From: a virus
Direction: 5' to 3' (one strand)
DNA: 10,331 bases
Virus genome (UHGV): UHGV-0298894
The notes below the pieces were generated by a model, which did not search any database, was not told the origin of the DNA, and worked only from the letters and a program-made list of their open reading frames with translations. Both the position numbers and the translations under genes were made by a program. Shown here in pieces: positions 2,344-4,849 of this stretch. Within the stretch, counting starts at the first letter, position 1. Each line of letters opens with the position of its first letter.

Positions 2344-2963
2344 GACTCGAAAGCGTAGCTAAATTTCACTCGCCAAAAAGCCCGATGATGAGCGACTCAC
2401 CACGGGCCACGGCTTCTGACTCTCTTTCCGGTACTGATGTGATGGCTGCTATGGGGATGGCGCAATCACAAGCCGGATTCGGAATGGCTGCATTCTGCGG
2501 TAAGCATGAACTCAGCCAGAACGACAAACAAAAGGCTATCAACTACCTGATGCAATTTGCACACAAGGTATCGGGGAAATACCGTGGTGTGGCAAAGCTC
2601 GAAGGAAATACTAAGGCAAAGGTACTGCAAGTGCTCGCAACATTCGCTTATGCGGATTATTGCCGTAGTGCCGCGACGCCTGGCGCAAGATGCAGAGATT
2701 GTCACGGTACAGGCCGTGCGGTTGATATAGCAAAAACAGAGCAGTGGGGGAGAGTTGTTGAGAAAGAATGCGGAAGATGCAAAGGTGTCGGCTATTCAAG
2801 GATGCCAGCAAGCGCCGCATATCGCGCTGTGACGATGCTAATCCCAAATCTTACCCAACCCACCTGGTCACGCACTGTTAAGCCGCTGTATGACGCTCTG
2901 GTGGTGCAATGCCACAAAGAAGAGTCAATCGCAGACAACATTTTGAATGCGGTCACACGTTAG
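2340..2963 (+). CDS. Q: Late-gene antiterminator Q (lambda type), 207 aa
   Basis: Translation MRLESVAKFHSPKSPMMSDSPRATASDSLSG...CRDCHGTGRAVD...CGRCKGVGYSR...NILNAVTR is essentially the lambda Q sequence as I recall it, including the zinc-binding Cys motif. It is followed by a pR'/qut-like promoter. Confidence 0.95.
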   Translation: MRLESVAKFHSPKSPMMSDSPRATASDSLSGTDVMAAMGMAQSQAGFGMAAFCGKHELSQNDKQKAINYLMQFAHKVSGKYRGVAKLEGNTKAKVLQVLATFAYADYCRSAATPGARCRDCHGTGRAVDIAKTEQWGRVVEKECGRCKGVGYSRMPASAAYRAVTMLIPNLTQPTWSRTVKPLYDALVVQCHKEESIADNILNAVTR

Positions 2964-3005
2964 CAGCATGATTGCCACGGATGGCAACATATTAACGGCA
3001 TGATA

Positions 3006-3034
3006 TTGACTTTTTGAATAAAGTTGGGTAAATT
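3006..3034 (+). promoter_or_regulatory. Late promoter pR' with overlapping qut (Q-utilisation) site
   Basis: -35 TTGACT (3006-3011), 17-nt spacer, -10 TAAATT (3029-3034), immediately downstream of Q. The sequence matches the lambda pR' region from memory. Confidence 0.8.
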
Positions 3035-3040
3035 TGACCC

Positions 3041-3234
3041 AACGATGGGGTAATTCGCTCGTTGTGGTAGTGAGATGAAAAGAGGCGGCGCTTACTACCG
3101 ATTCCGCCTAGTTGGTCACTTCGACGTATCGTCTGGAACTCCAACCATCGCAGGCTGAGAGGTCTGCAAAATGCAATCCCGAAACAGTTCGCAGGTAATA
3201 GTTAGAGCCTGCATAACGGTTTCGGGATTTTTTA
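3041..3234 (+). ncRNA. 6S-type short late leader transcript (pR' to tR')
   Basis: Predicted start about 7 nt after the -10, ending at the tR' U-run, about 194 nt as for lambda 6S RNA. Boundaries are inferred from the promoter and terminator positions. Confidence 0.65.
3175..3234 (+). terminator. Intrinsic terminator tR'
   Basis: Perfect 11-bp inverted repeat AATCCCGAAAC (3175-3185) / GTTTCGGGATT (3219-3229) enclosing an inner GCAGG/CCTGC hairpin (3191-3212), followed by a T-run. Confidence 0.85.
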
Positions 3235-3243
3235 TATCTGTGT

Positions 3244-3259
3244 AACAGGTAAGAGCATT
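3244..3259 (+). repeat. Left copy of 16-nt direct repeat AACAGGTAAGAGCATT
   Basis: Read directly from the sequence; pairs with 3660..3675 (15 of 16 identical). Confidence 0.7.
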
Positions 3260-3659
3260 CTCCCTTATGGGGCTTGGCTTAAATGCACCGAGTGCTCTTA
3301 TCGTTGTGGCAGCACAACGATAGTTTTCGTCAGAGTTGGCGACTTTGCGGGTTTTTAGAAACTGACCACAAAGATAAATGCAAACGATGATTTGATGTTG
3401 ATGGCGGCCTAAGAGACCAAAATCACTGGGTCTTCCGACTCCCAGCTACCAAATTCGGCGCACTGGCCCGGTGTGATTAATAATGGGCACCCATTCAAAT
3501 GTACTCTCGGTAGGTTCGATTCCTGACTAGACCCAGATGGCGACGGGGAGGGTCCAATTGAGTGGGTAACAACGGGCATGTCGCCTTAGTAAATCCCTCA
3601 AGGGTGCGACGCATAGACCGGTACTAGCGTCGCCGTTAGCTCCACGAAACGGAGCGCAC
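3260..3659 (+). other. Non-coding segment in the late leader between tR' and S, apparently absent from lambda; hairpin-rich candidate structured RNA or cargo remnant
   Basis: The Q-stop to S-start distance is 1102 bp here against about 676 bp in lambda (recalled coordinates). No sense-strand ORF exceeds 35 codons. Contains a perfect 10-bp hairpin (3299-3322), hairpins at 3606-3633 and 3639-3655, and a GGTTCGATTCC T-loop-like motif (3513-3523). Confidence 0.5.
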
Positions 3660-3675
3660 AACAGGTAAGAGTATT
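3660..3675 (+). repeat. Right copy of 16-nt direct repeat AACAGGTAAGAGTATT
   Basis: Read directly from the sequence; one mismatch (C/T) against 3244..3259. Confidence 0.7.
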
Positions 3676-4043
3676 TGTAGAGTTCGACTCTCTATCGTGG
3701 GCTTTTTCCAGCGATGCGAGCCATAAATGCTCTTTCCGTTGTGCTGAATTAAGCGAATACCGGAAGCAGAACCGGATCATCAAATGCGTACAGGCGTCAT
3801 CGCCGCCCAGCAACAGCACAACCCAAACTGAGCCGTAGCCACTGGCTATCCTGAATTCATCAGTGATAGTTACGCTGCGGCCTTCTACACATGACCTCGT
3901 GAAAGCGGGTGGCAAGAGGCTGCGCTAACAACCTCATGCCGTTTTGCCCGTGCATATCGGTCACGAACAAATCTGATTACTAAACACAGTAGCCTGGATT
4001 TGTTCTATCAGTAATCGACCTTATTCCTAATTAAATAGAGCAA

Positions 4044-4074
4044 ATCCCCTTATTGGGGGTAAGACATGAAGATG
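4044..4074 (+). promoter_or_regulatory. S translation-initiation control region (sdi hairpin plus dual start Met1/Met3)
   Basis: CCCC-TTATT-GGGGG hairpin (4046-4059) sequesters the Shine-Dalgarno sequence. Tandem starts ATG 4066 (S107 antiholin) and ATG 4072 (S105 holin) give MKMPEK, as in lambda. Confidence 0.6.
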
Positions 4075-4389
4075 CCAGAAAAACATGACCTGTTAGCCGC
4101 CATTCTCGCGGCAAAGGAACAAGGCATCGGGGCAATCCTTGCGTTTGCAATGGCGTACCTTCGCGGCAGATATAATGGCGGTGCGTTTACAAAAACAGTA
4201 ATCGACGCAACGATGTGCGCCATTATCGCCTGGTTCATTCGTGACCTTCTCGACTTCGCTGGACTAAGTAGCAATCTCGCTTATATAACGAGCGTGTTCA
4301 TCGGCTACATCGGTACTGACTCGATTGGTTCGCTTATCAAACGCTTCGCTGCTAAAAAAGCCGGAGTAGAAGATGGTGGAAATCAATAA
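4066..4389 (+). CDS. S: Holin/antiholin S (class I holin, lambda type), 107 aa
   Basis: [39 protein letters not shown]... is near-identical to recalled lambda S, with the dual-start motif and three predicted transmembrane segments. Confidence 0.95.
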
Positions 4390-4849
4390 TCAACGTAAGG
4401 CGTTCCTCGATATGCTGGCGTGGTCAGAGGGAACTGATAACGGACGGCAGAAAACCAGAAATCATGGTTATGACGTCATTGTTGGCGGAGAGCTATTTAC
4501 TGATTACTCCGATCACCCTCGCAAACTTGTCACGCTAAACCCCAAACTCAAATCAACAGCAGCCGGACGTTACCAGCTTCTTTCCCGTTGGTGGGATGCC
4601 TATCGTAAGCAGCTTGGCCTGAAAGACTTCTCTCCGAAAAGCCAGGACGCTGTGGCATTGCAGCAGATTAAAGAGCGTGGCGCTTTACCGATGATTGATC
4701 GCGGTGATATTCGTCAGGCAATTGACCGTTGCAGCAATATCTGGGCTTCACTGCCGGGCGCTGGTTATGGTCAGTTCGAGCATAAGGCTGACAGCCTGAT
4801 TGCAAAATTCAAAGAAGCAGGCGGAACGGTCAGAGAGATTGAGGTATGA
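4373..4849 (+). CDS. R: Endolysin R (lytic transglycosylase, lambda type), 158 aa
   Basis: [39 protein letters not shown]... matches recalled lambda R. Overlaps the S 3' end and the Rz start. Confidence 0.95.

Follow-up and report, generated by a model that had tools for sequence, protein, structure and literature searches.

A conserved phage RNA built like the middle of tmRNA in the late leader of a lambdoid genome

The late region and its extra segment

We analyzed a 10,331-nucleotide (nt) stretch of the virus genome UHGV-0298894, referred to throughout as the window, which contains the late region of a lambdoid phage. Gene Q (2340-2963) is followed by the late promoter pR', the 6S leader and its terminator tR' (~3006-3236), and the lysis genes S (4066-4389) and R (4373-4849) lie downstream. 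Between tR' and S we find the gene for a conserved structured RNA (3322-3495), here called the core, which is built like the middle of transfer-messenger RNA (tmRNA).

3006-3034, + strand: late promoter pR' (TTGACT-17-TAAATT), in a region 97.8% identical to lambda; drives the whole leader
3175-3236, + strand: terminator tR' of the 6S leader; inverted repeat 3175-3189 / 3215-3229, then a T run, in the lambda-identical flank

The flanks of the segment are lambda-like, as a preliminary description of this DNA had stated: by BLAST, window 2900-3259 corresponds to lambda 44446-44805 at 97.8% identity, and window 3728-4100 to lambda 44847-45220 at 96.8%. That description put the extra sequence at about 430 bp, which agrees with a net gain of 427 bp; the indel itself is larger, with 468 bp (3260-3727) standing in place of 41 lambda bases. 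Its remarks on the lack of a long sense-strand open reading frame (ORF) and on the richness in stable hairpins were also borne out. The longest + strand ORF in the segment encodes 35 amino acids (3283-3390), and the predicted fold of 3238-3795 reaches -194.9 kcal/mol (z = -3.8 relative to shuffles). Within window 2950-4100, pR' is the sole promoter-like site. The core lies downstream of pR' and tR', and its expression in this prophage should therefore need Q antitermination.

A conserved structured RNA with covarying pseudoknots

To define the family, we combined the results of two IMG/VR pattern scans with annotated records, which gave 83 copies (59 distinct), and from these derived an alignment (A1) and a covariance model (R1). 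The core of the window, at 174 nt, matches R1 over the full model length (181.7 bits, E=3.8e-49), and megablast finds 3322-3493 at 83-91% identity in many unrelated phages. Its elements are as follows.

3322-3495, + strand: tmRNA-like core RNA, the conserved family unit (covariance model R1)
3327-3342, + strand: 5' hairpin P1 (TCGT...GCGA), directly 3' of an invariant GTTTTC; 96.7% paired, one-sided changes only
3380-3412, + strand: tag frame GCA AAC GAT GAT TTG ATG TTG ATG GCG GCC TAA = ANDDLMLMAA*; ARAGORN resume consensus at lowered threshold
3398-3425 (3398-3401 / 3423-3425), + strand: H5-like stem around the last codons and the stop; 93% paired, one pair G-C/A-U at 33/26
3426-3430 / 3441-3445, + strand: stem of pseudoknot 1, CTGGG/CCCAG; three covarying pairs
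3426-3458, + strand: pseudoknot 1 overall, loop CCGA (3435-3438) with TCGG (3455-3458); 98.7% paired
3459-3464 / 3470-3475, + strand: stem of pseudoknot 2, CGCACT/GGTGTG; 99.7% paired, two covarying pairs
3459-3488, + strand: pseudoknot 2 overall, loop GCCC (3466-3469) with tail GGGC (3485-3488)

Read 5' to 3', the core thus presents the GUUUUC motif and a small hairpin, then an A-rich resume context (GAUAAAU) and the tag, followed by a stem around the stop codon and a pair of H-type pseudoknots. In the model-based alignment of the 59 distinct sequences, 86.5% of cells are paired, against 38-48% when the partners are slid. The pseudoknot 1 helix changes on both sides at 4/4 pairs (CCGA:UCGG, CCAG:CUGG, GUCG:CGAC), and among the subtypes the loop/tail pairing of pseudoknot 2 is formed by at least six different complementary sequences. 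The 5' part (the invariant GUUUUC, the small hairpin and a CUUUG/CAAAG stem) is conserved with little covariation, and this upstream PK1-like stem is weak, being 79% paired with no two-sided changes.

Comparison of homologues, which the preliminary description had proposed, therefore supports conserved helices and pseudoknots, and window 3322-3495 is the gene for a conserved structured phage RNA. A structured RNA was among the possibilities raised at the outset, and that part of the earlier interpretation stands; the tag frame and the likeness to tmRNA had been overlooked.

A ten-codon tag frame of the tmRNA type

The ARAGORN and Rfam scans suggested in the preliminary description were empty at normal thresholds. 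A permissive Rfam scan of the window returned weak tmRNA matches at 3358-3459 (tmRNA_permuted, E=0.013; beta_tmRNA, E=0.0054), and it was through these that the tag frame at 3380-3412 came to light; ARAGORN at a lowered threshold picks up the resume consensus and the tag. Sub-threshold Rfam matches of independent family members fall to tmRNA families only: RF04321 (E-values 0.013, 0.0022 and 0.00077), RF01850 (0.0054) and RF01849 (0.00011). For Cronobacter phage CS01, a carrier of the core, tmRNA matches are among the few that Rfam returns in the whole 48-kb genome. The one-piece model RF00023 recognizes just an 11-nt T-loop in the window (7.1 bits) and, in one other family member (L264; L numbers are our locus handles), the tag region at model positions 83-140 (11.7 bits).

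As in tmRNA, the frame opens with an Ala resume codon after an A-rich signal and ends in hydrophobic-Ala-Ala and a stop codon, the stop lies within the H5-like helix, and pseudoknots adjoin the tag. In every one of the 83 family copies, the frame runs for exactly 10 codons and a stop; 25 distinct ORFs occur among them. The encoded peptides include ANDDLMLMAA, ANDDVVLMAA, ANDDLMMVAA, ANDEQFLAVA, AKDDQFLAVA, ANEEMYLA(A/V)A, ANEEVYLAVA, ANDNLMMVAA and ANDSEVLMAA, among others. Synonymous variants are frequent (GCA/GCT, AAC/AAT, GAG/GAA, CTG/TTG, GTT/GTA/GTC, GCG/GCC/GCT and TAA/TAG), and codon choice follows clade, with GCT AAT GAT in 158-kb phages versus GCA AAC GAT elsewhere. An AUG frame that overlaps the tag is not conserved.

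The ssrA tag of E. coli is ANDENYALAA. Ala-Ala ends preceded by hydrophobic residues are the strongest degrons in E. coli, and in gammaproteobacterial hosts the tag almost always ends in YALAA (10.1101/2024.01.29.576913). The predicted family peptides match this ssrA-type degron pattern. The comparison of copies shows a tag frame under apparent constraint and provides moderate evidence that the frame may be decoded.

Occurrence and genomic context

In a BLAST search of 50,697 phage records, 481 contain the core at 70-90% identity, 333 of them over at least 80% of its length. The phages infect Salmonella, Klebsiella, Escherichia, Shigella, Erwinia, Citrobacter, Cronobacter and others, and include 46-50-kb Drexlerviridae, 155-160-kb Ackermannviridae, 72-kb and 88-kb virulent phages, and P1. 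Annotation of the core is absent in nearly all of these records. Our survey of bacterial genomes covered complete genomes of E. coli, in which 670 of 5426 (~12%) carry the core, in 568 places on P1-like plasmids and 151 on chromosomes. The full version seen in the window is present in 41 of these genomes, at ~99% identity and in the same position between Q and S.

The core is associated with tRNA genes: in many phages it heads a same-strand tRNA cluster. In phage P1, where its tag is ANDDLMMVAA, it sits at ~68,900-69,100 in the leader of the C1-controlled ban operon, between the "dicF-like region" and trnA/trnT, where the RefSeq record is blank. In Bas77-like and L308-like virulent phages, a consensus sigma-70 promoter (TTGACA-17-TAGATT) ends ~13 nt before GUUUUCG. 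Upstream of the core, depending on the phage, lies a frame hairpin (described below), a terminator or a promoter.

The P1 array occupies ~1.6 kb between Pban and tciA (L342 140-1900; L343 1620-3150, equal to NC_005856 ~68,700-70,230), and contains the dicF-like region with its terminator, the core, at least five frame hairpins, tRNA-Asn and tRNA-Thr. The minus-strand P1 genes plp and upl, which overlap this array, may be mis-annotations. Several GenBank records place "hypothetical protein" ORFs over the core on either strand (e.g., Bas77_0057 at L002 2484-2966) with no family support, and these are probably annotation artefacts. Phage CS01 (L345), which carries the core without tRNA genes, encodes a polynucleotide kinase (27042-27527), an enzyme of the RNA-repair type.

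Frame hairpins and cassette arrays

Around the core, the segment is organized by a second recurrent element, a long imperfect hairpin that we call the frame.

3241-3308, + strand: frame hairpin A; 5' arm 3241-3260 (repeat copy 1, 3244-3259), loop 3261-3289, 3' arm 3290-3308
3298-3323, + strand: perfect 11-bp hairpin TTATCGTTGTGGCAGCACAACGATAG, then GTTTTCG; overlaps the 3' arm of frame A as an alternative pairing; terminator-like
3496-3656, + strand: module X, an additional structured module that short-form relatives lack
3657-3743, + strand: frame hairpin B; 5' arm 3657-3676 (repeat copy 2, 3660-3675), loop 3677-3724, 3' arm 3725-3743
3744-3782, + strand: lambda-type tail CTGAATTAAGCGAATA with CCGG hairpin (3760-3775), then ATCATCA where lambda has ATCACCA; junction motif

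The 16-nt direct repeat that was reported to bracket the segment, AACAGGTAAGAG(C/T)ATT, is present as described, with copies at 3244-3259 and 3660-3675, 416 nt apart. With up to two mismatches allowed, the 10.3-kb window contains just this pair, against 0.01 matches expected (200 shuffles). The 16-mer is the best-conserved stretch of a longer interrupted repeat, that is, of two copies of the frame: CACAAC-A-GG-T-AAGAGCATTG, a variable loop, and CAGTGCTCTT-T-CC-GTTGTG, which together form an imperfect hairpin of ~18 bp. Frames A and B carry different loops. Frame A is paired at 18/18 scored positions, and P1-like plasmids have a frame hairpin with 96% identity to its loop and 3' arm (3260-3308). 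Frame B holds the T-arm-like hairpin GTAGAG-TTCGACT-CTCTAT in its loop, and from its 3' arm onward the sequence is that of lambda. Lambda has a single complete frame directly after tR' (5' arm 44787-44806, 37-nt loop, 3' arm 44844-44862).

A scan of the fetched phage loci found 137 frame-type hairpins with 57 distinct arm pairs. When 55 were aligned, 96.5% of cells were paired, against 40-58% with partners slid, and 11 of 18 pairs covary; the 3' arms were chosen as the best-pairing window, which inflates the percentage paired and leaves the covariation unaffected. The direct repeat is therefore the 5' arms of two flanking frame hairpins and not a target-site duplication, because lambda's uninterrupted site already has a complete frame. 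The idea of a repeat-bounded remnant of a mini-element, put forward in the preliminary description, is not supported: the repeat copies are arms of two self-complementary hairpins. Since lambda has such a hairpin at this very spot, the insertion within the loop of lambda's frame looks like cassette exchange by recombination between homologous frames rather than transposition. Other lambdoid prophages carry a different set of cassettes here: they share the first frame, but their core has the tag ANDDVVLMAA and the modules downstream differ. The core is one cassette of a modular array, in which conserved frame hairpins separate the modules and which in this prophage has replaced the loop of lambda's frame.

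Module X contains a frame-like hairpin with the T-loop motif GGTTCGATTCC (3513-3523) and a second hairpin, GCTCC-ACGAAAC-GGAGC (3639-3655), which by eye shows a compensatory change from GCTCC/GGAGC to GCCAC/GTGGC. The module is present in L004, L006, L014, L002, L061 and L101, and absent in L013 and L029; its 3' piece occurs separately in P1. Many modules of the family are followed by the junction motif (G/A)CCGG-N8-9-CCGG(C)-CAYCA.

Several further observations concern the frames and junctions. In P1, a real terminator hairpin (GCCCATCTTCGGGTGGGC and a T run) stands before the core at the same relative position as window 3298-3323. In L029, L006, L025, L042 and L094, the outermost helix of the frame upstream of the core takes up the first bases of the core (GAAAU(C) with (A)GUUUU; ACUAUC with GAUAGU), and the invariant GUUUU start, sequestered or free, may act as a processing or folding switch. 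T-arm-like hairpins recur in frame loops (window 3509-3529 and 3680-3698; L342 1000-1050; L094) and covary between relatives; examples are GGTTCGATTCC, GTAGAG-TTCGACT-CTCTAT and AGGG-TTCGAAT-CCCT. Neither ARAGORN nor Rfam calls a tRNA in these frame-loop hairpins, and the frames may descend from tRNAs or mimic them.

A second junction, (G/A)CCGG-N8-9-CCGG(C)-CAYCA-CAACAC, closes many modules (e.g., L258, L268, L308; L342 1150-1190) and is found in front of true tRNA genes as well (...CACCACAACACAAC|tRNA). The stem shows covariation (GCAGG/CCTGC, GTCGG/CCGAC), and a GTGGTG just after the frame can pair with CACCAC. In lambda itself (NC_001416, L003, ~44787-44900), the frame hairpin is followed by the tail CTGAATTAAGCGAATA-CCGGAAGCAGAACCGG-ATCACCA; the window (3657-3782 region) has ATCATCA, versus ATCACCA in lambda and close prophage relatives. 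The loop of the lambda frame is conserved in virulent phages (Bas77, L112). To judge by its sequence, lambda's frame and tail is the 3' junction of the phage RNA-cassette arrays without a cassette.

Candidate acceptor ends and genuine permuted tmRNAs

We considered a series of candidates for a tRNA-like part, none of which held up. At a 70% threshold, ARAGORN proposed a tRNA or tmRNA gene in three mutually inconsistent models, which place their "tRNA domains" in flanks that are not conserved. An acceptor stem between GGGGCTT (3269) and AGCTCCAC (3637) fails in that the latter belongs to a covarying local hairpin. A terminal stem joining the 3' arm of the upstream frame to the 5' arm of the downstream frame is not general: P1-type copies have no upstream frame, CS01 has no downstream frame, and Bas77-type copies begin at the promoter. 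The apparent 3' "hairpin-ACCA" acceptor end reads CAYCA, CACUA or AAGU, is found after unrelated modules and can pair with GUGGU. Pairing of the 5' leader near a CCA (L308, GGCAGA/UCAGCC-A-CCA; L086/L061, UUCAGAU/AUCUGGA) is not conserved and is broken in L294. The resemblance of GUUUUCG(U/A)C to the D-loop GG(A/U)UUCGAC of tmRNA is no more than a lead, since alignments to ssrA and to permuted tmRNAs score no better than shuffles.

Neither ARAGORN nor Rfam RF00005 finds a tRNA cloverleaf in the window; its T-loop motifs, one at 3513-3523 and another within the frame B loop, are isolated. ARAGORN calls no tmRNA of the permuted type (acceptor piece with T-arm and CCA, coding piece starting with the GGGG strand) in the family. 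Complementarity of the RNA to host ssrA is no better than in shuffles.

Genuine circularly permuted tmRNAs do occur in environmental viral contigs (L016, L018, L022, L034, L036, L041, L103 and ~20 more IMG/VR loci). Their tags include ANDDSFTPMALAA, ANDDFAPVDYALAA and ANDEKFALAA, and an intrinsic terminator soon follows each tag. They have the resume motif UAAAUGCAAACGAUGA in common with the core family.

Discussion

Relation to known RNAs. tmRNA is defined by the joining of a domain that resembles tRNA to one that resembles mRNA. By this defining test, the core RNA is tmRNA-like in design and tag and is not a canonical tmRNA. Like one-piece tmRNA (SsrA, 10Sa RNA; RF00023), it has an A-rich resume context, an Ala-first 10-codon tag with an Ala-Ala end, a stop codon in a stem (H5), H-type pseudoknots downstream, and a tag of the ANDE/ANDD type found in gamma- and beta-proteobacteria. 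Unlike one-piece tmRNA, it lacks the acceptor stem with G3-U70, the T-arm and the CCA end, which leaves nothing to alanylate. It is also smaller (~174 nt versus 363 nt in E. coli) and has two clear downstream pseudoknots versus three; similarity in sequence is confined to the resume site and the start of the tag, and the predicted tags end in LMAA, MVAA, LAVA or LAAA versus YALAA in the host.

The closest likeness by Rfam, below threshold, is to the two-piece permuted tmRNAs (RF01849, RF01850, RF01851, RF04321). Their coding piece, a separate RNA, resembles the core in having a 5' part, a pseudoknot, the tag and a short 3' structure, and the resume motif UAAAUGCAAACGAUGA is identical in the core and in phage permuted tmRNAs (L016, L036, L041). 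In permuted genes, an acceptor piece with T-arm, acceptor strand and CCA lies upstream, and there is a 5' acceptor strand GGGG; the core family has neither. Another phage-encoded partial tmRNA is that of mycobacteriophage DS6A, which lacks the coding sequence (CDS), and such halves can act on the host system (PMC11915505). The two are opposite halves: the DS6A RNA has a tRNA-like domain without a tag, and the core family has tag and pseudoknots without a tRNA-like domain.

In lambdoid phages, the interval between Q and S is a known site of tRNA cargo, such as ileZ-argN-argO of Stx phages; phage tRNA clusters also hold unexplained stable RNAs, such as the species 1 and 2 RNAs of T4. Like this cargo, the core occupies the slot after pR'/tR' and before the holin gene, would be related to translation, and would be expressed late and processed from a long transcript; unlike it, the core is not a tRNA. 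GOLLD and ROOL are large multi-pseudoknot phage RNAs of unknown function that lie next to tRNA genes. The core resembles them as a phage-borne non-coding RNA beside tRNA genes, but it has a tmRNA-like tag frame and no Rfam match to either; across 3150-3800, no match to GOLLD, ROOL or other curated phage RNAs appears even at E<=10. No model of Rfam 15 reaches its threshold on the core. In the full-text literature, with subscription titles outside its scope and a prior mention thus possible, we found phage full-length, permuted and CDS-less tmRNAs and nothing on the core family. The family, a tmRNA-like RNA minus its tRNA half, appears to be undescribed.

A putative role in ribosome rescue. The best overall explanation, to which we assign a probability of about 0.5, is that the core would be a tmRNA-like tag-template RNA cassette that acts on ribosome rescue. 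The reading as a tag template is favored because of the codon-level evidence. The position of the core beside tRNA genes, in P1 among others, points to a link with translation. Selection on the core is indicated because it has been kept in virulent and temperate phages of several families, some copies with a promoter of their own. The leader, core included, would be transcribed at high level after Q antitermination. By analogy with tRNA clusters, host RNA-processing enzymes would probably then cut the core from the long transcript at the frame hairpins; these are ~18-bp helices with conserved bulges, and cleavage of the RNase III or RNase P type is plausible. That the RNA itself acts in the rescue of stalled ribosomes, with the tag decoded into an ssrA-like, non-host degron and the tRNA-like function supplied in trans or bypassed, we propose tentatively, at somewhat less than even odds. 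A more specific version, which we regard as doubtful, holds that in infected cells stalled ribosomes would be switched onto the phage template without a tRNA-like domain of its own, and that rescued proteins would receive the phage tag (ANDD..MAA, ANDEQFLAVA and others) and not ANDENYALAA. Entry might occur by functional pairing of the phage template with the entry step of host Ala-tmRNA/SmpB, or the GCA resume codon might be decoded directly by ordinary Ala-tRNA.

A number of results weigh against a role as tag template in rescue. The core has no tRNA-like domain, ARAGORN being negative at normal and relaxed settings, and because there is no acceptor end, canonical trans-translation could not start. 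ARAGORN made 0 calls in the 83 family copies despite its positive controls; at default settings it recovered 26 permuted tmRNAs among the viral contigs retrieved by motif, as well as a standard tmRNA (L119) and E. coli ssrA. In the complete genome of CS01, a carrier of the core, no tRNA or acceptor-like piece is found at E<=1. Closing helices between the 5' and 3' ends and "ACCA" ends are not conserved in the family. All Rfam scores lie below the gathering thresholds (RF04321, 22.9-27.4 versus 47 bits; RF01850, 16.4 versus 84; RF01849, 21.9 versus 50), and in pairwise comparison the core resembles neither E. coli ssrA nor the 5' parts of true permuted tmRNAs more closely than shuffled sequence does. 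As to the tag, its variable sites fall 6/5/9 by codon position, a weak third-position bias; it contains zero indels and so offers no test of frame preservation; and part of the frame lies within a helix.

Alternative explanations. The universal absence of a tRNA-like domain would suit a function without aminoacylation, and the core might instead be a decoy or inhibitor of host trans-translation, its tag untranslated, that titrates binders of the tmRNA body and lets phage proteins escape tagging. The targets might be secondary sites of SmpB, ribosomal protein S1, RNase R or the 30S subunit. The opposite half-molecule offers a precedent, as the CDS-less tmRNA of DS6A inhibits endogenous tmRNA in E. 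coli (PMC11915505), and a late leader or a strong promoter would supply the high copy number a sponge demands. We nevertheless consider a decoy rather unlikely: the tRNA-like domain, which is the main binding site of SmpB, is missing, and a sponge has no need of an Ala-first frame of 10 codons and a stop, with ssrA-like termini kept through synonymous changes. The same codon-level argument tells against a decoy aimed at host immunity, in which a mimic of tmRNA would absorb or blind an immune or toxin system that detects tmRNA or RNAs like tRNA, or cuts them. Phage tRNA clusters are widely thought to counter defences that target tRNAs, with phage tRNA genes replacing cleaved host tRNAs, and the core is co-located with such clusters. 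Predicted defence systems with SmpB-like domains, the CoCoNuTs, have been described, and tmRNA is reported to be the commonest target of RtcB repair (PMC10542128). The spread over unrelated phage families also resembles that of an accessory cassette. To our knowledge, no defence system acts against the mRNA-like part of tmRNA, and the sequence has no particular nuclease site in evidence; an anti-defence role, which the preliminary description had also raised, seems improbable.

The core could also be a decaying relic, a captured fragment of a tmRNA (probably permuted and two-piece) that lost its acceptor piece and hitch-hikes in the array, with the frame hairpins as the real functional or recombinogenic parts. 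That its best Rfam similarities are to permuted models, that true permuted tmRNAs with the same resume motif occur in other phages, and that cassette composition at the lambda site varies between prophages would all fit. Compensatory changes in four helices, two pseudoknots among them, largely refute this explanation, as do the intact frame in 83/83 copies at 70-90% identity and the consensus promoter that virulent phages provide, and we hold it to be very improbable. A protein gene on the minus strand is annotated as a 160-amino-acid hypothetical protein in Bas77, and PQ850598 and several other phages place a "hypothetical protein" over the match; here it would be degraded to ORFs of 56, 44 and 105 amino acids (3409-3579, 3527-3661 and 3598-3915). 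These ORFs have no significant Pfam or PHROG family, the 105-amino-acid ORF having just two matches of 16-20 residues (E=0.006-0.008) to PHROGs without known function, and each relative interrupts the reading frame in its own way while the RNA helices covary; in most records the region carries no annotation. A 416-bp non-coding segment inside a near-perfect direct repeat could also suggest a mini-transposon, akin to a miniature inverted-repeat transposable element, with a 16-bp target-site duplication. Terminal inverted repeats and a transposase are both lacking, the repeats extend into hairpin-forming frames with different loops, lambda's "empty" site holds a complete frame, and the same frames bound dozens of unrelated modules, next to tRNAs too, in P1 and in virulent phages. 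Coding on the minus strand and origin from a transposon are both essentially excluded.

Implications. A selected RNA that consists of only the mRNA-like and pseudoknot half of tmRNA raises the question of how a tag template, or such a body, could function without an acceptor end; a conserved tag template stands in conflict with the lack of any means of charging. The family is common yet has been overlooked, unannotated or mis-annotated as small ORFs and missed by standard tools, even though it occurs in model phages (the ban leader of P1, the lambdoid late leader) and in virulent phages of the therapeutic type (Drexlerviridae, Ackermannviridae). The conserved hairpin frames account for the swapping of RNA cassettes between unrelated phages, and they account for a part of lambda's late leader, as a leftover frame hairpin and tail. 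If stalled ribosomes are indeed switched onto the phage template, trans-translation would be split between virus and host, even in P1 and the relatives of lambda.

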